A stretch of 15,067 bases of DNA from a virus (lineage: Duplodnaviria; Heunggongvirae; Uroviricota; Caudoviricetes), in the IMG/VR virus record IMGVR_UViG_2703718826_000001; one strand, written 5' to 3'. Made by a program: the position numbers and the translations under genes. The notes under the pieces are model-generated. The model had not been told where the DNA came from, searched no databases, and saw nothing but the letters and a program-made list of their open reading frames with translations. Of the stretch, positions 2,295 to 15,067 are shown piece after piece; the first letter of the stretch is position 1; every line of letters starts with the position of its first letter.

Positions 2295-2369
2295 GTCCTC
2301 TTAGTTAAATGGATATAACGAGCCCCTCCTAAGGGCTAATTGCAGGTTCGATTCCTGCAGGGGACACTT
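2295..2369 (+). tRNA. argW: tRNA-Arg (anticodon CCU)
   Basis: Cloverleaf readable by eye: acceptor GTCCTCT pairs with AGGGGAC, anticodon loop CTCCTAA, T-arm GGTTCGATTCC; matches E. coli argW from memory except the last two encoded nt are TT instead of CA (CCA end). Confidence 0.85.
2347..2367 (+). repeat. attL core: 21-bp direct repeat (3' end of argW)
   Basis: TTCGATTCCTGCAGGGGACAC is identical at 2347-2367 and 13946-13966; the first copy is the 3' end of the tRNA gene. Confidence 0.8.
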
Positions 2370-2480
2370 TAAAGACCTTTCTCTACATTTCACTTCATTA
2401 CATAACCACTTAAAAAACAGTAAGTTATCACCGAATCGGCCTGATTTTCATTTCAGTTAATTTCATGACATTACAACCTC

Positions 2481-2530
2481 GTGATGGTATAAGTGATGGT
2501 ATTCCCCAGTTCGATATGCAGATACCATCA
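2481..2530. promoter_or_regulatory. putative integrase arm-type binding sites (TGATGGTAT repeats)
   Basis: GTGATGGTAT at 2481-2490 and 2493-2502 (12-bp spacing) plus an inverted copy ATACCATCA at 2522-2530; the same tandem pair recurs inside the other island end at 13873-13893. Confidence 0.45.
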
Positions 2531-2540
2531 ATTTACCAAA

Positions 2541-3827
2541 ATGAGTACAGATATGGCCATTAATGTGCTTTCCCCCAAACAGATAGAAAACGCCAAGCCG
2601 AAGACCAATGATTACAAACTTACCGATGGAGGGAGTTTGTATCTACTGGTACGAAAGACTGGTGGAAAATACTGGCGTATGAATTATCGTTTTGATGGAA
2701 AACAAGTGACATTGGCATTAGGGGTCTACCCAGATGTCTCACTTGCAACAGCGCGGAAACGGCGTGATGAAGCCAGGCAACTACTAGCCGATGGTCGTGA
2801 TCCTCGCGAAGCAAAGAAACCCAAAAAGGAAGACCCAATTTCCCCCACGTTCGAGAGTGTTGCCAGAGAGTGGCATAGTGGAACGATGGGGCATCCTGAG
2901 TGGAAAGAGATCACCCGTAAAAAAATTCTCCGAGAAATGGAAAACCACCTCTTTCCTGCCATCGGTTCAAAGCCTATCGATACGCTCAAAACCCGTGACT
3001 TGATGCCGATGCTGGTTGAGATGACTGAGAAAGGAATTGGTGCCACAACGAGCCGGGTAAAAACCACTATGACGAGCATCTTCCGTTATGCAGTGCAACG
3101 TGGAATTGTCGATTACAACCCTGCCCACGATCTAAAAGGTGCAATTACGGCCCCCAAAGTACGACATCGCCCCGCACTACCTCTCGAACGTTTACCTGAA
3201 CTGTTAGCGAAAACGAGAAGTTACACGGGAAGACCATTGACTCGCCTAGCAGTTCTCTTTTCCCTGCACACTTTTGTGCGATCCAGCGAACTACGACATG
3301 CCAGATGGGAGGAGATCGACATTGAAAATGGGCTATGGACGATACCAGGACAACGTGAAGAGATCGCAGGGGTTAAATTCTCAGATCGGGGTGCAAAGAT
3401 GGGGGCTGCTCATTATGTCCCGCTATCTAGTCAGGCTATCGGGGTACTGGAGGATATAAGGAAAATCAGTGGTGAATATCTGCTGGTTTTCCCCGGTGAC
3501 AGCAACCCATATAAACCGATGAGCGAAAACACAGTTAATAAAGCACTGCGAACGATGGGTTACGACACTCAAACTGATGTATGCTTGCATGGGTTCAGGG
3601 CGATGGCCTGCTCTGCACTGACCGAATCAGGACTCTGGTCACGCGATGCAGTTGAACGGCAGATGAGTCACCAAGAAAGAAACGAAGTGCGGGCAGCATA
3701 TGTGCATCTTGCGCAGCACATGCAGGAACGCCGCAGAATGATGCAATGGTGGTCTAATTATCTGGAACTAAATAAGGACGAATTTCATGCTCCTTATGAC
3801 TTATCAGGTATTAACATTATCAATTAA
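2541..3827 (+). CDS. P4-type tyrosine integrase (start uncertain: 2493 GTG, 2541 ATG or 2553 ATG)
   Basis: N-terminal AKPK...Y.L.DGGSLYL...KYWRMNYRFDGKQ motif typical of P4-family integrases; C-terminal catalytic-region residues (R in VRSSELRHARWEEID, HGFRAM, AAYVH); located directly 3' of the tRNA; first 48 nt of the ORF overlap the arm-site repeats, so an internal ATG is preferred. Confidence 0.85.
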   Translation: MSTDMAINVLSPKQIENAKPKTNDYKLTDGGSLYLLVRKTGGKYWRMNYRFDGKQVTLALGVYPDVSLATARKRRDEARQLLADGRDPREAKKPKKEDPISPTFESVAREWHSGTMGHPEWKEITRKKILREMENHLFPAIGSKPIDTLKTRDLMPMLVEMTEKGIGATTSRVKTTMTSIFRYAVQRGIVDYNPAHDLKGAITAPKVRHRPALPLERLPELLAKTRSYTGRPLTRLAVLFSLHTFVRSSELRHARWEEIDIENGLWTIPGQREEIAGVKFSDRGAKMGAAHYVPLSSQAIGVLEDIRKISGEYLLVFPGDSNPYKPMSENTVNKALRTMGYDTQTDVCLHGFRAMACSALTESGLWSRDAVERQMSHQERNEVRAAYVHLAQHMQERRRMMQWWSNYLELNKDEFHAPYDLSGINIIN

Positions 3828-3857
3828 ATACTCTTATAATTTAAAACAGAGGTCATA

Positions 3858-4739
3858 ATGCAGCATTCAACAGAGAATGAAACTATATTCTTAGGAAATC
3901 TATGGATTGACAAAAAAATACCACCATTAGAATATTGTTCATTTGAACGCGCTTCAAGACTATTAGAATGCGAGATTGATGATTTATTACACCTATACGA
4001 AATAGGCGCTTTTAATATCGCATTCAAGGCGGATGGACTTGCAGTTAGATTTAATGTTAATTTCCTCAATAAAAATCAGAAAATGGAAATTGACTTAATT
4101 CATCCCGTATTAACTAATCAATCACTAGAGATGGAGTTTTCAACAATATGGTATGACCTTAAAGATGATTCCTTTGAACATTTTGAAAATGGGCTTCAAA
4201 TTATAGGATTTGCCTGTGGTATTTGGTACGCCGATGATATGATAAGTGACATAAAAAATGGATTAGCTATAGATCCAGATTATGAATTCAGGCTTAAACC
4301 GGTAAAAATACGAGATAATGTTTTGATGGCAACGGCCTCATATGAAGGAAATAAGGTCATTGATATTCCATTTGAAGATCTTCTTATCATGCGAAGAGAT
4401 TTAGAGTTAATATGGAAATCAGTAAAAACTGGAATTCCTATGCCAAGTTTACTTACGAAAAGAATTTCATCTGAACCTAAAATCCCCAAGCGATTAAATA
4501 ACACTGCTGAGCATCATGCAAAAAATAGGGAGGGGTTATTAAATGCAGCCATATATATTTTAGCAAAATACCCAAGCGAATGTCGTGGTGAAAGAAAAGA
4601 GATAAGTCCTGAAAAGTGGACTAACGCCATAATTAAACATTTAGGAGAGCTACCTCCAATATTTATCACTAATGAACAAGAAATCTTAAGAAAATTACGA
4701 TTAGCGGTTAATCATGCGGGGTTAAAACAAAAGGGGTAG
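3858..4739 (+). CDS. hypothetical protein (AT-rich orphan cargo gene)
   Basis: 293-aa ORF; markedly AT-rich against GC-rich neighbours; no domain recognised. Confidence 0.6.
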   Translation: MQHSTENETIFLGNLWIDKKIPPLEYCSFERASRLLECEIDDLLHLYEIGAFNIAFKADGLAVRFNVNFLNKNQKMEIDLIHPVLTNQSLEMEFSTIWYDLKDDSFEHFENGLQIIGFACGIWYADDMISDIKNGLAIDPDYEFRLKPVKIRDNVLMATASYEGNKVIDIPFEDLLIMRRDLELIWKSVKTGIPMPSLLTKRISSEPKIPKRLNNTAEHHAKNREGLLNAAIYILAKYPSECRGERKEISPEKWTNAIIKHLGELPPIFITNEQEILRKLRLAVNHAGLKQKG

Positions 4740-4805
4740 ACTGAAACAATCTACAGGTAGAGTTGATTACACTACCTTCACAGCATTTTGATATCCCCAT
4801 AGTAT

Positions 4806-4833
4806 CTGCCGTGTTCATTACATAACACGGCAG
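4806..4833 (+). promoter_or_regulatory. inverted repeat (10-bp arms, 8-nt spacer) just upstream of alpA
   Basis: CTGCCGTGTT 4806-4815 and AACACGGCAG 4824-4833; right arm ends 8 nt before the alpA ATG and overlaps the likely ribosome-binding region. Confidence 0.35.
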
Positions 4834-4841
4834 GTAATTTC

Positions 4842-5057
4842 ATGACATTAAAAACTTATCCTATCACTGGACATGCCCGCCCACGAGCTACTGCTGACTT
4901 TTTGCAAATAAGTACGGTTACTCTCTGGCGCTGGGAAAAGAACAATCCTGAATTTCCCAAATCTATACGCATTTCAAAACGGGTATCTGTTTACGATGCA
5001 CAAGAAATTAGGCAGTGGGTTAAAGCTCAATCAGCAGGATTGGAGGAAGTAGTGTAA
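4842..5057 (+). CDS. alpA: AlpA-family phage regulatory protein (excision regulator, HTH)
   Basis: 71-aa ORF; FLQISTVTLWRWEKNNPEFPKSIRISKRVSVYDAQEIRQWV fits the AlpA/Xis-like pattern (T-I/L-Y/W ... FP.P ... R.V.W ... EI..W). Confidence 0.7.
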   Translation: MTLKTYPITGHARPRATADFLQISTVTLWRWEKNNPEFPKSIRISKRVSVYDAQEIRQWVKAQSAGLEEVV

Positions 5058-5106
5058 TGACAATATTAACAAAGCTGGGGAGAAAAAAGCCTCCCCAACG
5101 TATTAA

Positions 5107-5301
5107 TCAATTCTTTGGTTCTAAACCTCGGCTTTGTAACTCTTTGCGTAGAATGCGCTTGATCCAAGCCGCTAGCGATTCATCGCCATCCTGCTGTTGT
5201 GCTTGTTCCATCAGTTCACGCAGTTCAGGGTCAAGTCGGAACTGGAATGGCGGATTCCCACGTCTTTCATTTTTGTGTGTTGACACGTCAATTACACCCA
5301 T
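5107..5301 (-). CDS. putative ribbon-helix-helix (Arc/CopG-like) DNA-binding protein
   Basis: 64-aa ORF; PPFQFRLDPELRELMEQ ... SLAAWIKRILRKEL resembles a beta-strand/helix/helix RHH fold; divergent from the downstream small-gene operon; the competing plus-strand ORF 5057-5407 is Ser/Cys-rich and implausible. Confidence 0.5.
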   Translation of the reverse strand: MGVIDVSTHKNERRGNPPFQFRLDPELRELMEQAQQQDGDESLAAWIKRILRKELQSRGLEPKN

Positions 5302-5334
5302 TGTAATGTATTTATGTGTAATGACACATTACAC
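5289..5334. promoter_or_regulatory. operator-like dyads ATTACA-N5-TGTAAT and TGTAAT-N5-ATTACA in a divergent promoter region
   Basis: ATTACA 5291-5296 / TGTAAT 5302-5307 and TGTAAT 5317-5322 / ATTACA 5328-5333, lying between and over the start of the RHH gene and upstream of the Icd-like gene. Confidence 0.4.
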
Positions 5335-5417
5335 ACAGAAAAACAAAATAGCAACGCCCCGGAGTGTTTGCAGCAGCACCGAGGCGTCTGACCAGCACGT
5401 TATATGAGGTAACGAAG

Positions 5418-5594
5418 ATGGCTAAACAGAAGTGTACCTGGTTATTTGCGGCGATCAACCGCAGTCAACGTAATGCCCGTCCGGTGATGTTAAGGATCAT
5501 CGCAGATAACGAACGATCAGCGCGGCGCAGACTTGCCCCGGACTATGTACTGAGCTTTGCCGGGCGCATTCCCTGCGGAGGTGAACATGCGTAA
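5418..5594 (+). CDS. Icd-like host cell-division inhibitor family small protein (putative)
   Basis: 58-aa ORF from the internal ATG with GAGG upstream; pattern W.FAA..R....RPVML.I.A.NE..ARR.LA.DYVLSFAGRIP recalled as typical of Icd-like proteins in P4-like islands. Confidence 0.5.
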   Translation: MAKQKCTWLFAAINRSQRNARPVMLRIIADNERSARRRLAPDYVLSFAGRIPCGGEHA

Positions 5595-5946
5595 TTATCC
5601 GCACCCCGGCGAACGCTGGCAGCATGAACGTGGCTGGACGGTCACGATTATCCGATTAATAGAAGCCTCGCCCTCTGTGGCGCTGGTTAATCCTGAATTC
5701 AGCTGTGAAGTGCTGATACGTCATGACAGCGACAACCAGCTATCCTCCTGCCCTCTGGCATGGTTTGAACAGCGGTATACGCGCCTGTTTGATGTACCGC
5801 TCTTTAAGCCTGCACCAGCTCCTGCAGGCGGTAGTGGTTCCGGCCCGCTGACACTGCATCCGTCTGTGCTATTTATCCGCTGGCGGGAGCGTAGCATATG
5901 GCGCTCTGCTGAGCCTGACGACGGTCACTATTCAAAGTTTCTCTGA
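5587..5946 (+). CDS. hypothetical protein
   Basis: ATG at 5587 preceded by GGAGG at 5-nt spacing; overlaps the preceding stop by 8 nt; no domain recognised. Confidence 0.5.
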   Translation: MRNYPHPGERWQHERGWTVTIIRLIEASPSVALVNPEFSCEVLIRHDSDNQLSSCPLAWFEQRYTRLFDVPLFKPAPAPAGGSGSGPLTLHPSVLFIRWRERSIWRSAEPDDGHYSKFL

Positions 5947-5977
5947 CAAAATACCGCTGAAAACGGAGTAATCCACG

Positions 5978-6262
5978 ATGAATATTTCAAACGGGCACAA
6001 CGGTGCTCAGGGCCACACTTTGCCTGAAAAACACAATACCGGTGCTTTTGCCTATGGGTTGTCAGAGGACAGTTTCGGAAAGCTGACCCGCGCAAGAAAT
6101 GCCTGCGACATGCTCCAGCTTCTCTTTTCTGAATACCCGTCTCAGGCCGGAGCACTGGACGCTGGCTGTGCGCATGGTGTCGCCGCGCTGATGGAGTACC
6201 TGCTGGCAGATTTGACGGATATTGCACACAGCTGCGCACTGATTGAAGGAGGTGCCAGATGA
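5978..6262 (+). CDS. hypothetical protein
   Basis: 94-aa ORF with GGAG upstream; GC-rich like the primase operon; stop overlaps the next start (ATGA). Confidence 0.55.
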   Translation: MNISNGHNGAQGHTLPEKHNTGAFAYGLSEDSFGKLTRARNACDMLQLLFSEYPSQAGALDAGCAHGVAALMEYLLADLTDIAHSCALIEGGAR

Positions 6263-6642
6263 ACCAGCCGCAGGTTTCCATTTTCCCGGCAGAAATGACC
6301 ACCGCGCTTTACCGGCGGGCTATTGCTTCAGCATGGCGGCAGAAAATGCTGAACGAAACTGGCAGTGATCAGTATGGTCCGCACAGCCTGACGGTGGAGC
6401 GTATTGAAATGGCCATTGCGCTGCATATCGAGTGCGTACTGATTAACGAGTACGGCGAAGTGCAGGGCGCCGCTGCCGCGCTGGCACTGCTGACTGACAT
6501 GCTGGAGCCGTCACTGCTGACCGCGCCGCCGGTACTGACCGCGCGCGGCTGTGAAGTGATGGCGGAGATGTACCGCACGCTTCCGGCGGCCTTTGATGAC
6601 TTCTGCAGTACCGGTGTGACGTTGTATGAGGGGGAAGTATGA
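6259..6642 (+). CDS. hypothetical protein
   Basis: 127-aa ORF coupled at both ends by ATGA overlaps (6259-6262 and 6639-6642). Confidence 0.6.
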   Translation: MNQPQVSIFPAEMTTALYRRAIASAWRQKMLNETGSDQYGPHSLTVERIEMAIALHIECVLINEYGEVQGAAAALALLTDMLEPSLLTAPPVLTARGCEVMAEMYRTLPAAFDDFCSTGVTLYEGEV

Positions 6643-9311
6643 CAATACAGACGGTTACGCAGATTTCAGCCGCCGCACGGGGGAAATGGCCCGTTATTCT
6701 GCAGATGCTGCGTATTGATGTACCTGAAAACGGCAGGCACGGTCCCTGCCCGAAATGTGGGGGCAAGGATCGTTTTCGCCTTGATGACCTTGACGGGCGC
6801 GGGACGTGGATCTGCAGCCAGTGTGGCAATGGTGACGGTCTGGATCTGGTTAAGCTCGTAACCGGTTACAGCGTCAGAAAGGCTGCGCAGGAGGTGGCGC
6901 AGGTGCTTAATGTGCCGGATGTGCAGGAACTGCCTGTTAAGCCTGCCAGACAAAAAGCCCCTAAACGCGACATGGGTCTTACCGTGGCGGCGCTGATGAA
7001 AGAGAGCCACACGGGAGAAAGCGCCTATCTGACAGGAAAAGGGTTCGCCGGATACCCGGCCTCTCTGACCGGAAGCGTGCAGCATATCAGCGGTAAGGAT
7101 TTTCCTGCCGGTTCCCTGCTGTTACCACTCACGACCAACACCGGAGCCGTGACCGGTGCACAGCTTATCGCCCCGACGGGTGAAAAAAGCATACTGCCCG
7201 GCAGCACGATGAAAGGCGCGTTTGTGTCGCTCAGCCCGTTACCGTCTGAACCACCGGTACAGGTGGTGATTACCGAAGGTTACGCTACGGCGCTGACGGT
7301 AAGCCAGCTCACTGCCGGATGCGTAGTGGCTGCCATATCTGCGGGCAACCTGCCCAATGTGGCGCAGTCGCTGCGGGCACGCTGGCCTGAGGTAAAAATT
7401 ATCATCGCCGGTGATAACGATTTTCAGGACGGGGGTGAGAATCCCGGCAGAGCCTTTGCTGAACGGGCGGCAAAAGCTGTTGGCGGCTGGATGACGCTGC
7501 CACCAGGAGAGATTAAGGCTGACTGGAATGACTTTCATCGGGAGCACGGTATTACCCGTGCCCGTGAAGCCTTTCGCAACGGTCTGGTACTGTGCGGGGA
7601 AGGCCGCACGCAACTGCCGCACGGGTTCCGTCTTACCCAGGAATATCTCTGGTATGAAAAGCAGGTACAGCGCAACGGTGAGACGGAGATCCAGAACGTC
7701 AAAATATGCAGCCCGCTGCGCGTGACGGCAATCACCTGCGATGCCGATGGCGGTAACTTCGGACGACTGCTGGAATGGGAAGATACGTGGGGTGAGTGTC
7801 GCCGCTGGGCGATGCCGATGGAAATGCTGAGCGGCAGTGGTGAGGAACTGCGCCGGGTACTGCTGGTTAACGGGCTGTCTTATATCAGCACCACCGGTGA
7901 GGCACGCGCACGCCTGATGGAATATATCTCACTGTGTAAACCGGAACGCCGCGTGACCTGCGTCAGTCGTACTGGCTGGCATGGTCAGGTTTACGTCCTG
8001 CAGGATGAGGTCAGCGGTGAAGGTGCAGAGGGTGTCATTCTCCAGACCACTTCCGTGCAGGGGCGTGATTTCCGCGTGTCGGGCACAACAGAGGAATGGC
8101 GGGAGCATGTATCCCGCTACTGTACCGGCAACTCCCGCGTGGCATTTGCTGTCAGCCTGGCCTTTGCTGCACCACTGTTACGGCTGGTTGGTATGGACGG
8201 CGGCGGCTACCACCTCAAAGGGGAATCGACAGACGGTAAGACCACCACCATGAAAGCGGCAACCTCCGTCTGCGGCGGGCCTGACTACTGGCAGACATGG
8301 CGGGCCACCGGCAACGCGCTGGAGGGATGCGCCAGCCGCCGCAACGATGCTGCCATGATGCTTGATGAGATCCGGGAAGTTGACGGACGCGAGGCAGGCA
8401 ATATCGCCTACATGCTGGCAAACGGTCAGGGCAAGGGCCGTGCCGGTACGGACGGTGAGCTGCGTACCCGTAAGCAGTGGCGCCTGTTGTTCTTTTCAAC
8501 TGGCGAGTTGTCTCTGACCGAACATGCGGCAAAGGCCGGTGAGCGTACTTTTGCCGGGATGGAAGTCAGGATGATCCAGATCCCCAGCGATTCCGGGAAG
8601 TTTGGCGTTTTTGAGGAGCTGCACGGCTTCGACAGCGGCAAGGCTCTGGCAGAGCATCTTGAATGGGCCACGTCCTGCTACTACGGTTCGCCGTTCCGGG
8701 AGTGGCTGAAAGCACTGACCGCTGATCTTAACGGACTAACGGCACAGGCAAAATCGCTGATGAAGGAATATGCTGCCGCCCTGACTCCTAAAGATGCAGG
8801 CAATCAGGTGGGCCGGGCTGTGAACCGCTTTGCACTGGTGGCGATGGCAGGTGAACTGGCAACCCGTCTGGGTATCACCGGCTGGCCTGAGGGTGAAGCA
8901 CTGCGGGCAACCCGCGTCTGCCTGAACGCATGGCTGAAAGATCGCGGGCACACCGCCAATCAGGAAGATATCGCCGCACTGGAGCAGGTTCGCAGTTTCT
9001 TTACCGCGAATCAGTACAGCCGCTTTGCAGACTGGTATGACGAGCGCAACCGCCCCGGCAATATGGTGGGCTGGCGCAGGGTGGAGAAAGGCAGTACCGC
9101 GCAGGGCACGGAAGCTGTCACTACGTTCTATGTCATGCCGTCCGGCTGGAAAGAAATCTGCAGGGGATTTGACCCGCGCAAGGTGGCGCGTCTGTGCGTA
9201 GATCGTGGATACCTGCTGCCCTCCACTGATGGCAAACTCCAGACAACCATTCGCCCGCCAGAGATGAATCCCCGCAGGCTCTATGTCTTCAACAGCGAGG
9301 TGCCGGGTTAA
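6639..9311 (+). CDS. P4 alpha-like primase-helicase (zinc-ribbon, Toprim, DUF927/D5-like NTPase)
   Basis: 890 aa; N-terminal CPKCGG...CSQCG zinc ribbon; Toprim-like ITEGYATA and AGDND; Walker A KGESTDGKTT near 8221-8247; GC-rich. Confidence 0.9.
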   Translation: MTIQTVTQISAAARGKWPVILQMLRIDVPENGRHGPCPKCGGKDRFRLDDLDGRGTWICSQCGNGDGLDLVKLVTGYSVRKAAQEVAQVLNVPDVQELPVKPARQKAPKRDMGLTVAALMKESHTGESAYLTGKGFAGYPASLTGSVQHISGKDFPAGSLLLPLTTNTGAVTGAQLIAPTGEKSILPGSTMKGAFVSLSPLPSEPPVQVVITEGYATALTVSQLTAGCVVAAISAGNLPNVAQSLRARWPEVKIIIAGDNDFQDGGENPGRAFAERAAKAVGGWMTLPPGEIKADWNDFHREHGITRAREAFRNGLVLCGEGRTQLPHGFRLTQEYLWYEKQVQRNGETEIQNVKICSPLRVTAITCDADGGNFGRLLEWEDTWGECRRWAMPMEMLSGSGEELRRVLLVNGLSYISTTGEARARLMEYISLCKPERRVTCVSRTGWHGQVYVLQDEVSGEGAEGVILQTTSVQGRDFRVSGTTEEWREHVSRYCTGNSRVAFAVSLAFAAPLLRLVGMDGGGYHLKGESTDGKTTTMKAATSVCGGPDYWQTWRATGNALEGCASRRNDAAMMLDEIREVDGREAGNIAYMLANGQGKGRAGTDGELRTRKQWRLLFFSTGELSLTEHAAKAGERTFAGMEVRMIQIPSDSGKFGVFEELHGFDSGKALAEHLEWATSCYYGSPFREWLKALTADLNGLTAQAKSLMKEYAAALTPKDAGNQVGRAVNRFALVAMAGELATRLGITGWPEGEALRATRVCLNAWLKDRGHTANQEDIAALEQVRSFFTANQYSRFADWYDERNRPGNMVGWRRVEKGSTAQGTEAVTTFYVMPSGWKEICRGFDPRKVARLCVDRGYLLPSTDGKLQTTIRPPEMNPRRLYVFNSEVPG

Positions 9312-9345
9312 GGCTTTGCGTGAGTCTTATTTATTAAGGGTAACA

Positions 9346-9533
9346 GGTGAAACAGGTGGAACAACCGTATTTTACAGGGCTGAACCTGATCCACCTTCTG
9401 AAATAGTGAGGTGGAACAGATGTAACGCCAGCCAATCCGCTGTTCCACCTTGTTACCCGCGATGTTCCACCGGTGCAGTGTATATAAATGCCTTATAAAA
9501 CAAAGCAGTAACACATGTTTCACCTGTTCCACC
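9346..9533. repeat. iteron cluster (putative replication origin / crr-like region)
   Basis: Seven copies of the 9-mer GGTG(G/A)AACA: plus orientation at 9346-9354, 9355-9363, 9410-9418; reverse complement at 9441-9449, 9463-9471, 9516-9524, 9525-9533; an AT-rich stretch at 9481-9500 lies between them; immediately 3' of the primase-helicase gene. Confidence 0.6.
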
Positions 9534-9621
9534 GCATCAGGGACATAAAGCAGACTGAAACAGAGGGTATTTTTATCTGGCTGGCTTTCATAGCCACGTC
9601 TGAATAACCGCAAGCGCCCGT

Positions 9622-9639
9622 TGTGCCAGCCACCACACA
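9622..9639 (+). promoter_or_regulatory. putative Ogr/Delta-type activator site (TGT-N12-ACA) of a late promoter
   Basis: TGT 9622-9624, 12-nt spacer, ACA 9637-9639, about 75-90 bp upstream of the Sid-like ATG (9712); AGGAG Shine-Dalgarno at 9702-9706. Confidence 0.25.
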
Positions 9640-9711
9640 CTGAGCACCGATAGTGTGCTTGTGTCAGCCACGACACAATTGACGTAACGAACCAACCCGA
9701 CAGGAGAAGTC

Positions 9712-10455
9712 ATGAACAACACCGCAGTGAATAACAACCTTTCCACTTTTCCGGCTGTAACGCAGCGGGCACTGGAAACCATGAACACAGCCAGAAACGC
9801 ATGGCTTGAAGCACGTCGTCAGCAGAAAGCGGCAGCGGATAATATTGCGACAATCCGCCAGCGTCGCGCTGAAATGGAAGCCACGACGAACACACTGAAT
9901 GAGGAGTGGCGCACGCTGTTTCGTGAAAGTCAGGGCGTGGTCTCAAAGGAAATGAAAAAACTGCGCACGGAAATTGCGCTGGGACGAGAAACGCTTGAGG
10001 ATTTTGATGAGCTGCTGGCGGCTCAGGAAAGCGAAAATGCACTTTTGCCGCAGAAAGCTGCGGAATTAGCCGGAAAGTATATCCACGCGCATAACATTCT
10101 TGTGGATATTCGCGCAAAACAAATCTGGGAAGATTTTATGCAGTCGCATGGAAAAGCGCTTATTCAGACGCTGAGCCTGCTTAAATCCACAATGGGCCGG
10201 GAAGCCAGTGCCGTTGTGGGTGTGGTGAATTCAGTTAATGACCCGGACACAGTGCTGAAAGACTTTATTCATAAACATATCACCAGACCGGCTCTGGCTA
10301 ACGATGCGATGCCTGAACAGGACCCGGTGTTTAAACTGGCGGGAGTTGCCCCGGATTATGCGGCGCGTCTGGATTTCAGTAATCAACTCTCTCCGGCAGC
10401 TATGCATAAAATAAAGGTTCGTCAGGAACTTGCTGAGAAGGAGAAAGCAGTATGA
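9712..10455 (+). CDS. Sid-like putative capsid size-determination (external scaffold) protein
   Basis: 247 aa, Ala/Glu/Lys/Leu-rich and presumably helical; size and position (first gene of the late operon, before the Psu-like gene) match P4 Sid; N-terminus resembles the Psu N-terminus as I recall it. Confidence 0.55.
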   Translation: MNNTAVNNNLSTFPAVTQRALETMNTARNAWLEARRQQKAAADNIATIRQRRAEMEATTNTLNEEWRTLFRESQGVVSKEMKKLRTEIALGRETLEDFDELLAAQESENALLPQKAAELAGKYIHAHNILVDIRAKQIWEDFMQSHGKALIQTLSLLKSTMGREASAVVGVVNSVNDPDTVLKDFIHKHITRPALANDAMPEQDPVFKLAGVAPDYAARLDFSNQLSPAAMHKIKVRQELAEKEKAV

Positions 10456-11003
10456 CGGCCCGAGGCACACCTGACCAGGCACTTACCAGTTTTCGGAATG
10501 CCCGTATTCTGTGGGCCGGACATAGTGAGAGCCGAAAAGCCGTTGAACAACAGATAACATCTCTCCTCGCTGCCACAGAAAAACCAGCAGATTATGCCCG
10601 ACAGCTCGAATTACTGCGGGAACGTCTGGATGTGCTGAAATGGCAAATTAACTGTGCTGCTCGGGAATGCATTTACTCGCAGCATTTATTGATGGAGGCC
10701 TGCACAGAAGCTGCTCTCAGCAATTTTATGCAGGCGAATGGGGCAGCCCTGACATCTGCACTGGCTCCGTTCCTGAAGGGGCGCGGAGGGGTTGACGTTG
10801 CGTCCCGTATATTACGCAGTGCTCTGGTTCGCCAGCTGGCAATAACACCGCCTGAAATTGCCGGGGATTATCGTGAGATCCTGGATGAATCCGGTTTGAT
10901 GCCAGACCCCGGGATGATTCGTGATTGCCAGGGCTCTTACACCCCGGCACAACATCTGCGTTTTCAGCAACGCCTGAATGACATTAACGATATACAGGAG
11001 TGA
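10452..11003 (+). CDS. psu: Psu-like polarity suppression / capsid decoration protein
   Basis: 183 aa; motifs KWQIN, FMQANGAALTSALAP and YTPAQ match my recollection of P4 Psu; AAGGAG upstream; start overlaps the previous stop (ATGA). Confidence 0.65.
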   Translation: MTARGTPDQALTSFRNARILWAGHSESRKAVEQQITSLLAATEKPADYARQLELLRERLDVLKWQINCAARECIYSQHLLMEACTEAALSNFMQANGAALTSALAPFLKGRGGVDVASRILRSALVRQLAITPPEIAGDYREILDESGLMPDPGMIRDCQGSYTPAQHLRFQQRLNDINDIQE

Positions 11004-11008
11004 TATTA

Positions 11009-11281
11009 ATGGCACTTAAATGTCCGGAATGCGGTACAGTTGCACACGCCAGAACAGCAGCCTATGAAGCTCCGTCAGTTAAACGCTCGTGGTATCAGTG
11101 CCAGAATCTGGAATGTTCCTGCACATTTACGGCACTGGAGAGTGTGGATAAGATAATCATGAAACCCCGGCGCAATGAACAGGAACCAGACAAATCACAA
11201 ACCCCGGTAAAACAACAGCAAACGCTCAATCGCTATGGCTCCGCGTCAAAACTGTCAAGCCGTCAGCAGATTCCTGTCTAA
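11009..11281 (+). CDS. Ogr/Delta-family zinc-finger late transcription activator
   Basis: CPECG...AHARTAAY...YQCQNLECSCTF...ESV closely resembles P2 Ogr (CPLC...AHARTSRY...YHQCQNVNCSATF...ESV); AGGAG 8 nt upstream of the ATG at 11009. Confidence 0.85.
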   Translation: MALKCPECGTVAHARTAAYEAPSVKRSWYQCQNLECSCTFTALESVDKIIMKPRRNEQEPDKSQTPVKQQQTLNRYGSASKLSSRQQIPV

Positions 11282-11304
11282 TTAGAAAAAAACGCCCACG
11301 TAAT

Positions 11305-11327
11305 CCCGGTCGAGTACCGGGATTTTT
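11305..11327 (+). terminator. rho-independent terminator after the late operon
   Basis: Stem CCCGGT 11305-11310 pairing with ACCGGG 11316-11321, loop CGAGT, followed by ATTTTT 11322-11327. Confidence 0.6.
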
Positions 11328-11766
11328 AACACCTTTTCCCTGGCTGGCCTGAGAGCGCATGAGTGCATGTCTATAGCGCATGAAAACGCATGAACCTTAT
11401 GCACCATTTTTGACGAGAAAGCCCTTGTGTGGTGGCTTCTGAGACGATTTATGAGGTGCATGAAAACCAGTCTGTTAAGCGAAGCGGGCAGGCGTGCGGG
11501 GCTGTTCGCATCAACATAAAAATAACGGGCTGATATAGTTATAAAATCAAATGAACTCTTTTAGTACGACATGGGTATGTGCGCCAGTAGCAACGTCAGC
11601 CCCCAAGCTTTCTATTGTTCTTTTCTGTTGTACCATCAATACGTACCGATTAGCTCCTAAGCATCAATATCAGTTTGAACGTATTGCTTTGAACTAATTT
11701 TTAGATGATTTTTTTCATTAAAAAATTATAATGTTGTAGATAAAAAGAGAATCTTATAGAGGCGTT

Positions 11767-12615
11767 ATGTCAAATAAAGTTGATGTTTTTTTGAGCCGAG
11801 TTAGCCATGTATCACAGTTTGTATTGGTGGCATTTGCTATTTTTGGATATTTTTATACAGTAAGACCAATTTACCAAAAGGAACTTTTATCAGAAGACAT
11901 TGCAAAAAAAGAAGTTGAATTAAATAAATTAAAAACTGCAATGGAAAACTCCCAAAAATTTATAGAGAATAATAAAATCTTACGAAAAGAATTGGAGGGA
12001 AGCATTGCCAAACTTGATTTACAATACAAAGAATCAGAAGAAAAATTAAATTCAATAAATTCTGAACTAAGAAAAACTTTAAATGAACTAAATAAACAAA
12101 AGACCATTGCCAAAAGAGCGGTCAATGCAAACAACAAGAATCTTGAATCTGTTTTCTGGGAGAATTTTTCGGGGCTAGTTGGAGTAGTTTATATTTCTAA
12201 GAGCACAGATTTTGTGAACAATACACTGGGTGACGCCAAAACAGCCTATAATACTCCTAGTAATTTATATATATCTCCTTATGATGCAATTAATGAAGCA
12301 TTAAAAAATGGCAATCATAACTTTATCTCAAGTTCAGAAAATGTCCCTGAAAATATCCGCAACAAAATTCTAGCAAAGATCCGTCGCGCTATTGAAAAAA
12401 ATAAGATTTCATTAACAAAAAAACCTATCGGTTTTGATGAAAAAATTAATAGTCTGATAAAAACTATAGAGTCAACTAAGTTACGCAAAAATGAAAACGA
12501 AATAATGAAAAATAACACTGCAGAAAGAGAACTATCATCTTATATTTTCCTGATAAATGGTCAATCAAGAATCCGCGCCATGGATTTCTTAAAAGACATT
12601 CAACATTTAGACTAA
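11767..12615 (+). CDS. hypothetical membrane-anchored coiled-coil protein (cargo gene A, candidate defence component)
   Basis: 282 aa; AGAGG 4 nt upstream of ATG; one N-terminal hydrophobic helix (VSQFVLVAFAIFGYFYTV) then a Lys/Glu/Asn-rich heptad-like region; strongly AT-rich; no known domain recognised. Confidence 0.75.
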   Translation: MSNKVDVFLSRVSHVSQFVLVAFAIFGYFYTVRPIYQKELLSEDIAKKEVELNKLKTAMENSQKFIENNKILRKELEGSIAKLDLQYKESEEKLNSINSELRKTLNELNKQKTIAKRAVNANNKNLESVFWENFSGLVGVVYISKSTDFVNNTLGDAKTAYNTPSNLYISPYDAINEALKNGNHNFISSSENVPENIRNKILAKIRRAIEKNKISLTKKPIGFDEKINSLIKTIESTKLRKNENEIMKNNTAERELSSYIFLINGQSRIRAMDFLKDIQHLD

Positions 12616-12631
12616 TATTGGATATCTTATA

Positions 12632-13336
12632 ATGAATACTAATACTAAATTTGATTTATGGTTGATTAGAGTAAGTTACATTGCCCAAGTTGGATTGTTT
12701 TTTTTGACAACCTTTACAATATTTTACACAGTAATTCCGATATACCAAAATGCAAATCTGCAGGAATCAATAGCAAAAAAAGAAATCGAATATAAACAAT
12801 TACAAGACAAAGAAAAAACTCTATATTTAAAGTTAAGAAAGGAATATTCAAGAAAATATGTTGTTGATGCAATCTCCCAATGTTCTCCAACAGAAATACT
12901 TATGCGTCAACCATCTGAAGATGACAGTAAAAAATCACATGATGTAAGAATGAAGGAATTAAAAACATTTTTAAACAAAGATATAACCAGTTGCTTTGAA
13001 AAAACTTTTTATAGCAACCCTTACATTAAGGAATTAAGAGACACTGATCAACAAAATATTCTTGTTAAAATTAAAAATTTATCCCCCTCTATAACTAAAC
13101 TACATGAAAAATATAAAGCAGAATTTGATGACGATAGCAAGTTATTGAATACTGGAAAAGAAAAATCGACAAGATTAAAAGAGGTGGAAGATTATTTAAT
13201 AGGAATAGGAGGTTACACAGAAAACAGCAAAAAGGATTTTGAAAACTCATACATAGAATCTGGAGCATATGACTTGGTTGTAAGGTATGGTTTTGAAGTC
13301 AACGATCTATTTTCCAAAACCATCAGAGACAATTAA
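12632..13336 (+). CDS. hypothetical membrane-anchored protein, N-terminal paralogue of gene A (cargo gene B)
   Basis: 234 aa; begins 16 bp after gene A; N-terminal helix (IAQVGLFFLTTFTIFYTV) and the FYTV-PIYQ ... IAKKE motif shared with gene A; divergent C-terminus. Confidence 0.75.
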   Translation: MNTNTKFDLWLIRVSYIAQVGLFFLTTFTIFYTVIPIYQNANLQESIAKKEIEYKQLQDKEKTLYLKLRKEYSRKYVVDAISQCSPTEILMRQPSEDDSKKSHDVRMKELKTFLNKDITSCFEKTFYSNPYIKELRDTDQQNILVKIKNLSPSITKLHEKYKAEFDDDSKLLNTGKEKSTRLKEVEDYLIGIGGYTENSKKDFENSYIESGAYDLVVRYGFEVNDLFSKTIRDN

Positions 13337-13347
13337 TTAGGTGAACA

Positions 13348-13377
13348 ACCTCCTCTATTTTAATTAATAGAGGAGGT
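13348..13377 (+). terminator. perfect 12-bp stem-loop 3' of cargo gene B (putative terminator or RNA-stabilising hairpin)
   Basis: ACCTCCTCTATT 13348-13359, loop TTAATT, AATAGAGGAGGT 13366-13377; begins 12 nt after the stop; no clean U-tract follows. Confidence 0.45.
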
Positions 13378-13872
13378 GCTTAAATTATAAAAACATTTCA
13401 GGTTTGATTTAGATAACACGCAAATAAAAAACAAACTAATGAAATATATAAATTAATTCTTAGGTATAAAATGTTACAATTAGAATATATTTAATTTTTA
13501 ACTTTAAATCATGATAAATCTAAAAGTAAGCACCCAAAAAACCTTCAAAACACAATACGTCGTGTCTCAACCCCATGGTATTTAGGGTTAAACCAAGTTA
13601 TAGCGCTGACTGGTGAGCGGTTTGAAGTCATTCTGGTATACATAAAATGAAAAAATACATTGGGAGATATACCCCTGACTTACAGAGCTGGTAACGGTTA
13701 CCAAGTCGCATTGTGTAATGCGTGGGGTGTAAAATTTTTTGGGTATTTTTTATCCAGTAGCAGGTTAGCCTGCCCCCCCTGCTCCTAACGTTCTTTCATT
13801 CCTCTTTTCATCATTTTTAGAACGATATAAACAGATGGATCTCTATGGTTTTAATGAGTCGATTTTATCGTC

Positions 13873-13893
13873 TGATGGTATCCATGATGGTAC
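13873..13893 (+). promoter_or_regulatory. putative integrase arm-type sites at the attR end
   Basis: TGATGGTAT 13873-13881 and TGATGGTAC 13885-13893, same motif and 12-bp spacing as at 2481-2502. Confidence 0.45.
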
Positions 13894-13945
13894 CTAAGAG
13901 AGAAAATAAAAAATAATACTTAAAAAACATGAAATTATAAATACT

Positions 13946-13966
13946 TTCGATTCCTGCAGGGGACAC
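13946..13966 (+). repeat. attR core: 21-bp direct repeat (partial tRNA 3' end); probably also the attL of the next island
   Basis: Identical to 2347-2367; here followed by CA (13967-13968), i.e. the canonical tRNA CCA end. Confidence 0.8.
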
Positions 13967-14143
13967 CATGCACACCTCTCCTGAAATCTACCATACCCCA
14001 CAAAAAGCCTTTATAATCAGCACATACCCTTACTTATGTTACTCAAATAGTCGCCTTAATTCTCCTCAGGGGAACGTAAATCAAGTCACATTTGGGGGCC
14101 TATTTAGGGGCACATCTTGGTCAATCTATTGCGAGGCCCCCAG

Positions 14144-15067
14144 ATGCCACTGACAGCTCGACAAGTTGAAACAGCCAAACCCAAAGATAAAATTTATAAG
14201 ATTGCCGATGGTGGTGGGCTCTACCTTCAGGTCAATCCTAACGGCTCAAAGTACTGGCGAATGAAGTACCACTATGCGGGGAAGGAAAAGAAACTATCAT
14301 TTGGCACCTATCCAACTATTACATTGGCTGAAGCTCGCAAACGTCGGGATGAAGCCAAGAAAATACATGCCGATGGTAAAGATCCCGGTGAAGTCAAGAA
14401 AGCTGAAAATCTTGAGAAAAACCTTTCCGAAGGAAGAACTTTTGCCGCAATCGCCACCGAGTGGTACAACGCAAAAGTTTCAGGCTGGTCTGCCAGCTAC
14501 GCTGATTATGTCGACAGAGCATTCAAAAATAATGTGTTTCCCTACATTGGAAACAGACCCATTAGTGAAATCGAACCTCTTGAACTTCTCGCAGTTCTTC
14601 AGCGTATCGAAAGCCGAGGAGCCTGCGAGCTAGCTAATAAAGTTCGCCAACGATGTGGTGAAGTGTTTCGGTATGCCATTGTTACAGGTCGGGCACGATA
14701 CAATCCAGCTTCTGATCTGGTTATAGCAATGAAAAGCTATAAGCGAACACATTACCCTTTCCTGCTTCCTCCTGAACTACCAGAGTTTTTATACAAACTC
14801 GAAAACTACACCGGCAGTATTGTAACCCGTGAAGCTACAAAATTGTTGATGCTCACAGGGCTGAGAACAGTAGAATTACGTATGGGGGAATGGTGTGAGA
14901 TCGATTTTACCCAAAAGATATGGGAAGTTCCTCCGACCCGGATGAAAATGAGGAAGGAGCATATCGTCCCTCTGTCAGATCAGGCAATCCAGTCTCTGCA
15001 AATCCTCAAAGAACTGACTGGAAGATACAGATACATCTTTGCCGGAATGGATTTGCCCCTATATTTC
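14144..15067 (+). CDS. second P4-type tyrosine integrase, 3'-truncated by the window end
   Basis: Hand translation from ATG 14144 gives MPLTARQVETAKPKDKIYKIADGGGLYLQVNPNGSKYWRMKYHYAGKEKKLSFGTYP...LTGLRTVELRMGEWCEIDF... with no stop to 15067 (308 codons); N-terminus parallels the first integrase; absent from the ORF track for lack of a stop codon. Confidence 0.85.
   Translation, partial: MPLTARQVETAKPKDKIYKIADGGGLYLQVNPNGSKYWRMKYHYAGKEKKLSFGTYPTITLAEARKRRDEAKKIHADGKDPGEVKKAENLEKNLSEGRTFAAIATEWYNAKVSGWSASYADYVDRAFKNNVFPYIGNRPISEIEPLELLAVLQRIESRGACELANKVRQRCGEVFRYAIVTGRARYNPASDLVIAMKSYKRTHYPFLLPPELPEFLYKLENYTGSIVTREATKLLMLTGLRTVELRMGEWCEIDFTQKIWEVPPTRMKMRKEHIVPLSDQAIQSLQILKELTGRYRYIFAGMDLPLYF

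Follow-up and report, generated by a model that had tools for sequence, protein, structure and literature searches.

Does a transfer RNA gene that is followed by two integrase genes and two copies of one core repeat carry one integrative element or two, and is the more distant integrase still a working gene? The question is raised by IMG/VR virus record IMGVR_UViG_2703718826_000001, a stretch of 15,067 nucleotides (nt; the window in what follows) that covers the Escherichia coli mlaA-yfdC-argW locus, and whose last part, positions 13946-15067, had been read in an initial annotation as a second attachment-like site followed by a second P4-type integrase gene. We consider it very probable that this part joins two integrative elements that are independent of each other and stand one behind the other at argW, a P4-like satellite on the argW side and a large island (island 2) beyond it, and that the integrase gene of the island, int2, has been broken by the insertion sequence (IS) IS2.

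A core repeat that belongs to two elements

The 3' end of argW consists of a 21-nt core, TTCGATTCCTGCAGGGGACAC, that is present exactly twice in the window, once within the tRNA gene at 2347-2367 and once at 13946-13966. When 200 dinucleotide shuffles were searched for this core with up to 3 mismatches allowed, not one of them contained a match (0/200), and the second attachment-like site that had been proposed at 13946 is thus upheld as an exact repeat of the first. The two sides of this second copy have different counterparts: the left flank is that of the right attachment site (attR) in NCTC11023, and the right flank is that of the left attachment site (attL) in FDAARGOS_536. Because a satellite arm lies on its left and an island 2 arm on its right, the core at 13946-13966 is the attR of the satellite and the attL of island 2 at once, exactly as the initial annotation had it.

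Each of the two elements is found alone at argW in other genomes, with its junctions at the core. In NCTC11023, the satellite stands by itself between argW and dsdC, and the left arm of its attR there is that of the window, with the dsdC flank coming next after the core. Satellite copies were found in 7 of the 5426 complete E. coli genomes that were searched, at 99.3-99.4% identity, and those matches end at position 13969 of the window. The sequence from 13946 onwards matches 276 of the same 5426 genomes (in 266 of them, 80% or more of the query is covered), and int2 lies immediately beside argW in 266 complete genomes. Nearly all of these matches begin exactly where the core does, at 13946, and overlap the tRNA-Arg annotation; the match in KD602 begins at 13933. 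These solitary copies bear out the claim that two integrase-bearing elements stand in series at argW.

The att core occurs in two copies in the window, and a third site would here lie past 15067. In FDAARGOS_536, island 2 spans the whole interval from argW to dsdC (~74.6 kb) and ends in the 20-nt sequence ATTCCTGCAGGGGACACCAT next to dsdC; no third copy of the core was present within 20 kb of int2 in that genome, and the distal copy was found about 75 kb on, at dsdC. The third core copy that had been expected downstream is therefore present, but in a relative.

The two core copies also differ in what follows them. In its satellite-bearing state, argW encodes no more of the terminal CCA than the first C (…GGGGACAC directly followed by TTTAAAG, window 2360-2375), so that attL reads …ACAC and then TTTAAAG; the displaced fragment at attR (13960-13970) retains …ACACCA. 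The annotated lengths of argW in RefSeq are 72 nt in NCTC11023 and 75 nt in FDAARGOS_536, which carries the island alone. CCA is normally encoded in E. coli tRNA genes, and since it is not fully encoded here, this copy of argW would depend on the CCA-adding enzyme. The 16-nt core of KplE1, CTGCAGGGGACACCAT (sequence taken from PMC2951348), is found at 13954-13969, inside the 20-nt island 2 segment. Its presence does not discriminate between argW elements, because this core is simply the 3' end of argW.

The integrase gene of island 2 runs into IS2

The reading frame that starts at the ATG at 14144 is open to the last base of the window, 15067, and the RefSeq start of int2 in the identical DNA of the FDAARGOS_536 locus is the same codon (extract position 20199). 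Up to the breakpoint described below, the product is identical to the 396-aa reference integrase WP_001131472.1 at 301 of 301 amino acids (aa). The N-terminal part carries the arm-binding domain Arm-DNA-bind_3 (PF13356; residues 3-88, E = 2.9e-28) and the core-binding domain Phage_int_M (PF22022; residues 100-193, E = 4.1e-33), followed by a partial Phage_integrase domain (PF00589; model positions 3-80 of 172). The NCBIfam model PRK09692 is matched at positions 7-307 of 413. Among PDB structures, residues 1-97 match 3ju0 and 3jtz (N-terminal domain of a 'CP4-like integrase'), residues 96-203 match 2kj8 (the CPS-53 integrase), and 5hxy is a further match.

Homology to every int2 reference (276 copies) stops at 15047. 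Where the reference reads …GCCGGAA and then GAAATGATGTT…, the window reads …GCCGGAA and then TGGATTTGCCCCTATATTTC; an uninterrupted int2 would continue as …GCCGGAAGAAATGATGTT…. The 20 nt that take the place of the integrase sequence, 15048-15067, agree, with 0 mismatches, with the final 20 nt of IS2A as annotated in K-12 (extract 1372-1391), and they are also the end of the IS2 copy of KD602, which is 1331 bp long and flanked by a 5-bp target duplication. As read from these letters, IS2 is inserted after 15047, at codon 302 of 396, and disrupts int2, which makes the gene a predicted pseudogene. When the frame is extended with the K-12 IS2A sequence, it reaches a stop after 13 foreign codons, FAGMDLPLYFQTSVIT, and we infer that the int2 frame ends at that point within IS2.

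The consequences for the protein can be read from its full-length relatives, in which the catalytic set of the tyrosine recombinases (Arg, Lys, HxxR, His/Trp, Tyr) is complete. In the 396-aa reference, alignment with IntS places the motifs GHGFRH (HxxR) and RGTYNHA (Tyr) at residues 328-368, past residue 301, the glycine with which the int2 sequence of the window ends. Because IS2 is inserted at codon 302, int2 loses HxxR, the His and the nucleophilic Tyr; the domains that bind arm and core DNA remain, as does the region of the first catalytic Arg.

The account of this gene in the initial annotation accordingly needs amendment more than replacement. The start at 14144, the open frame and the domains of a second P4-type integrase were all correctly recognized, but the gene is not intact, and the view that the 14144 frame is functional falls with the IS2 insertion. 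What had been described as a 308-aa partial integrase is an integrase of 301 aa, to which the last 7 of the 308 codons, being foreign (IS2) DNA, do not belong. The gene does follow the attR core, although not directly: its ATG lies 177 nt after the repeat, and in the relatives int2 directly follows argW. It had also been observed that the list of open reading frames (ORFs) misses int2 and gives two out-of-frame ORFs instead, 13968-14153 and 14274-14633. Both observations are true, but the omission is a matter of the listing rule and not of biology, since the list leaves out ORFs that run off the end of the sequence. The two listed ORFs are real as mechanical ORFs, lie in a frame other than that of int2 and are unannotated in the RefSeq copies; the first of them (61 aa) had no significant Pfam or PADLOC match.

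In JX21CE8 (NZ_CP178438.1), int2 is split by IS903B, an independent inactivation of the same gene by an IS. In the leader of int2 we observed a 9-nt inverted repeat, TGGGGGCCT (14093-14101) and AGGCCCCCA (14134-14142), with a 32-nt spacer, the right arm of which overlaps the GAGG ribosome-binding site before the ATG at 14144; this repeat might take part in controlling translation or in autoregulation.

Table 1. Features of the argW locus in the window, with positions, strand and supporting evidence
Feature	Position	Strand	Evidence
argW, tRNA-Arg(CCT), integration target	2295..2367	+	ARAGORN; only tRNA found in the window
Satellite attL core, 21 nt, 3' end of argW	2347..2367	+	Exact repeat
P4-like satellite, ~11.6 kb	2368..13945	+	99.4% identity to NCTC11023 element; RefSeq names; Pfam; GC profile
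Candidate arm-type sites in satellite attR arm, TGATGGTAT / TGATGGTAC	13868..13891	+	9-mers common to both arms; putative integrase binding
Second 21-nt core; satellite attR and part of island 2 attL (hybrid site)	13946..13966	+	Exact repeat; flank comparison
Displaced argW 3' fragment, encoded CCA kept	13946..13968	+	Sequence; comparison with the 75-nt tRNA of FDAARGOS_536
Island 2 identity segment, 20 nt, ATTCCTGCAGGGGACACCAT	13950..13969	+	Common to island attL and attR in FDAARGOS_536
Island 2 left arm and int2 leader	13967..14143	+	100% identical to argW-int spacer of island-2-only genomes
int2, truncated P4-type (CP4/IntS-like) tyrosine integrase gene, codons 1-301 of 396	14144..15047	+	WP_001131472.1 identity; Pfam; NCBIfam; PDB
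IS2 right-end terminal 20 nt (transposase on minus strand); breakpoint in int2	15048..15067	-	0 mismatches to IS2A and KD602 IS2

Proposed history of the locus and expected mobility

In the history that we propose, island 2 would have been resident at argW first, and the satellite would have arrived later, entering between argW and the island. The satellite integrase would have recombined its own attachment site (attP) with the argW core, leaving the 21-nt core at either end of the new insert, and the crossover would have fallen within these 21 nt, to the left of CCA. We regard this order of events as probable; it is favoured because the island is widespread at argW, is heavily decayed and, in KD602, lies furthest from argW.

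With its integrase gene broken, the island would no longer be excised by its own enzyme and would thereby have lost its mobility. The satellite, in contrast, should still be able to excise, because its integrase is intact and both cores and the arm repeats are kept; such an excision would be precise and would bring argW and the island together again, with CCA once more encoded. We therefore treat the satellite, with a right boundary at 13966, as an independent unit that is probably excision-competent. Two further consequences can be imagined, both of which we judge very improbable. The satellite integrase might recombine the argW attL with the distal attR of the island, and so mobilize or delete the whole stack, an action that is conceivable because the island core lies inside the satellite's 21-nt core; or a truncated int2 product of ~314 aa, which has kept the domains for arm and core binding, might persist and act at the shared att site as a regulator or inhibitor that binds DNA.

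KD602 offers a longer stack for comparison, with three elements in series at argW, of which the int2 island is the last. Its first element is a P22-like prophage with torI. The middle island (~42 kb) carries a P4-type integrase, a relaxase, HxsABCD, a YhhABC cluster for a ribosomally synthesized and post-translationally modified peptide (RiPP) and a trio of tyrosine recombinases. The 13 nt that precede the core in KD602 are the same as those of the satellite in the window.

Alternative explanations

Several observations weigh against our reading of the locus as two stacked elements with an IS2-broken island integrase. Only 20 nt of IS2 lie in the window, which closes before the remainder of the IS, its target duplication and the 3' portion of int2. 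A synthetic junction query, made of window positions 14600-15047 joined to 450 nt of IS2, placed IS2 at this position of int2 in 0 of the 5426 complete E. coli genomes, and exact-pattern scans of contigs from metagenomes and from GTDB genomes returned no int2/IS2 junction, so that this junction rests on one sequence. The exact junction between satellite and int2 is likewise in no other complete genome, nor did it appear in the metagenome or GTDB scans. No consensus promoter for int2 was found in 13967-14143, the sole plus-strand match lying inside the coding sequence. Finally, the order of arrival is unreadable from the map, as insertion of the island into the satellite attR gives an identical structure. 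If the IS2 tail were an artefact of assembly or of the window edge, such as a collapsed contig end or a chimeric join, int2 would really be intact; the window does end within an IS, as is often the case for draft contigs, and the lack of IS2 at the same position in any other genome would fit. We nevertheless think this quite improbable: contig ends that reach a few bases into repeats normally reflect an adjacency that is genuine and backed by reads, the break coincides with the terminal base of IS2, with a 20/20 match, as in a real insertion, and int2 has been hit independently by an IS elsewhere (IS903B). A further alternative is that int2 is intact beyond the window as part of a resident CPS-53/KplE1-type prophage, with each element excising independently. 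The open frame to the final base, the K-12 site of CPS-53 at this same locus, the 16-nt KplE1 core within the repeat and the domain architecture that int2 shares with IntS, with which it aligns end to end, all agree with such an arrangement. It is made very unlikely indeed by the IS2 terminus in the final 20 nt and the end of identity to all 276 references at 15047, by an identity to IntS of only 48%, and by the genomes with an identical integrase, which carry an IS-ridden island of ~75 kb (with HsdR-N, helicase, TerB-N, Ag43 and YeeU-type genes) from which yfdGHI and torI are absent.

The same map also admits the opposite history, in which the satellite came first to an empty argW, the island then entered the satellite attR (core and dsdC-side flank), and IS2 followed later. 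The resulting structure would be identical, the whole 20-nt island core lies inside the satellite attR, and the same satellite does occupy an otherwise empty argW in several genomes. We still find this order unlikely, for the island sits directly at argW in 266 genomes with a degree of IS decay that suggests long residence, satellites of such a type are small, intact and mobile, and the position of the int2 island at the far end of the three-element stack of KD602 agrees with an entry of newcomers next to the tRNA gene. A single composite element with two integrases, the repeat at 13946 being an internal relic, would account for two P4-type integrases (38% identical to each other) in one orientation with one core; it is scarcely credible given that each half occurs alone at argW elsewhere with clean core junctions, and that the pair occurs together in none of the genomes searched.

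Comparison with known systems

The identification of the second element as a CPS-53/KpLE1-type island, which the initial annotation had thought probable, is not supported. A comparison of the integrase with IntS had been suggested there, and it returns 48% identity over 386 aa, which points to a homologue in the same family and not to the same element. CPS-53/KplE1 of K-12, with its IntS and TorI, does resemble island 2 in its argW site, in the orientation of tRNA gene and then integrase, in its core, and in a three-domain integrase that aligns over the full length. It differs in an identity segment of 16 nt as against 20 nt, in a length of 10.2 kb as against ~75 kb of unrelated cargo in the island 2 relatives, and in genes that the relatives lack, with no yfdGHI, torI or tail-fibre remnants found in island 2 of the genomes with an identical integrase; the integrase here is, moreover, disrupted by IS2. 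The pathogenicity island PAI-argW of CFT073 was considered as well and rejected: the CFT073 site is without a P4-type integrase and carries upaE, ipuA and ipuB.

Another parallel for island 2 may be sought in islands such as CP4-44 and CP4-6. CP4-type islands carry a P4-family integrase at a tRNA gene, and their right end holds Ag43, DUF932, antirestriction, RadC/JAB, YeeT and YeeU-CbtA-type genes. The integrase family, the direct repeats flanking the tRNA site and, in FDAARGOS_536, the right-end gene set are those of island 2 too, which differs in its argW target and its central cargo and whose body lies beyond the window.

P4-like satellites have been described as tandem elements, or as P4 components that adjoin complete elements (Moura de Sousa and Rocha, PMC8628076). 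The upstream element of the window resembles such arrays in carrying the P4 core set (int, alpha, Sid-like, Psu, Delta); the difference lies in its neighbour, an unrelated large island that has no more in common with it than an att core and the family of its integrase. The argW-dsdCXA region is called a highly variable island in the title of Moritz and Welch 2006 (cited in PMC7545054), and the window concerns the same argW-dsdC interval, which is filled differently from strain to strain. The likeness to IS2, a member of the IS3 family of 1331 bp with a 5-bp target duplication, consists in the terminal 20 nt, which equal those of IS2A; only this tip is in the window.

A satellite, a tRNA island of the P4/CP4 family and IS2 are all of well-known kinds, and those found here are 99-100% identical to database entries. 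The biology is already known in each respect: the argW-dsdC island is hypervariable, elements integrate in tandem at tRNA genes, and ISs bring about decay. Only this particular junction of satellite and int2 and the position of IS2 are unrecorded, and they are of no general interest. For annotation, it follows that int2 should be entered as an IS2-disrupted pseudogene and that the name CPS-53 should not be given to the downstream island. The locus can also serve as a worked example of stacking at argW, and of how a reader can be misled when ORFs are dropped at a sequence edge and the window stops 20 nt inside an IS.

Cargo of island 2 in related genomes

Island 2 of FDAARGOS_536 contains many copies or fragments of IS3, IS66, IS5, IS30 and IS21 elements. 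Its cargo includes a PapB fragment, an HsdR-N/DEAD-helicase/ATPase/TerB-N cluster, genes of sugar-acid metabolism and Ag43; at its right end stand a DUF932 protein, an antirestriction protein, a JAB protein, a DUF987 protein and a YeeU-type antitoxin, a gene set that we take to be typical of CP4-type islands. A search for arm-type repeats common to both arms of island 2 found no shared 9-mers.

The cluster named above consists of four genes (extract 26574-36900), encoding an HsdR N-terminal protein, a hypothetical protein, a DEAD/DEAH helicase and an ATPase with a TerB-N protein, and is present in KD602 as well. This conserved HsdR-N/helicase/TerB-N cluster looks like a defence-type module.

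Gene content and arms of the satellite

The P4 core set, comprising int, the alpha primase, sid, psu and delta, is present in the 11.6 kb between the repeats, where 7-15 kb would be expected, with functions that are mostly derived from annotation. The integrase gene (2553-3827) is an intact ORF of 424 aa, as annotated in the NCTC11023 element, and is supported by Pfam; the protein is 38% identical to the island 2 integrase. RefSeq product names place an alpha primase (TOPRIM/DUF927) at 6639-9311 and Sid-like, Psu and Delta genes at 9712-11281. In the NCTC11023 satellite, the products named by RefSeq are an integrase, an Icd-like protein, the TOPRIM/DUF927 primase, a 'septation initiation protein' (Sid-like), Psu and an Ogr/Delta zinc finger.

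Repeated motifs, which are likely to be arm-type sites of the satellite integrase, are found in each of the two satellite arms. The TGATGGTAT/C motif occurs in two direct copies near attR (13868-13891), and near attL it occurs directly at 2482 and 2494 and inverted at 2521. Another motif, ACTTAAAAAACA, is found at 2408 and 13918, one copy in each arm.

Two co-oriented ORFs of 282 and 234 aa, with a GC content of 27-31%, occupy 11767-13336, between the delta/psu genes and attR, at the position of a known variable (defence) hotspot of P4. Neither Pfam, with no significant match, nor PADLOC, with no match, assigned this pair, which is found in only 7 of the 5426 complete genomes and is a candidate for an uncharacterized cargo or defence module. 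Directly after the satellite integrase, at 3858-4739, lies an ORF of 293 aa with a GC content of ~33-40%, which is a 'hypothetical protein' in NCTC11023 and had no Pfam or PADLOC match. Upstream of the same integrase, at 2454-2479, a 25-26-nt sequence, CAGTTAATTTCATGACATTACAACCT, has an 88%-identical copy at 4831-4856, just upstream of a small helix-turn-helix gene at 4842, and the two copies may constitute a shared operator or promoter element.

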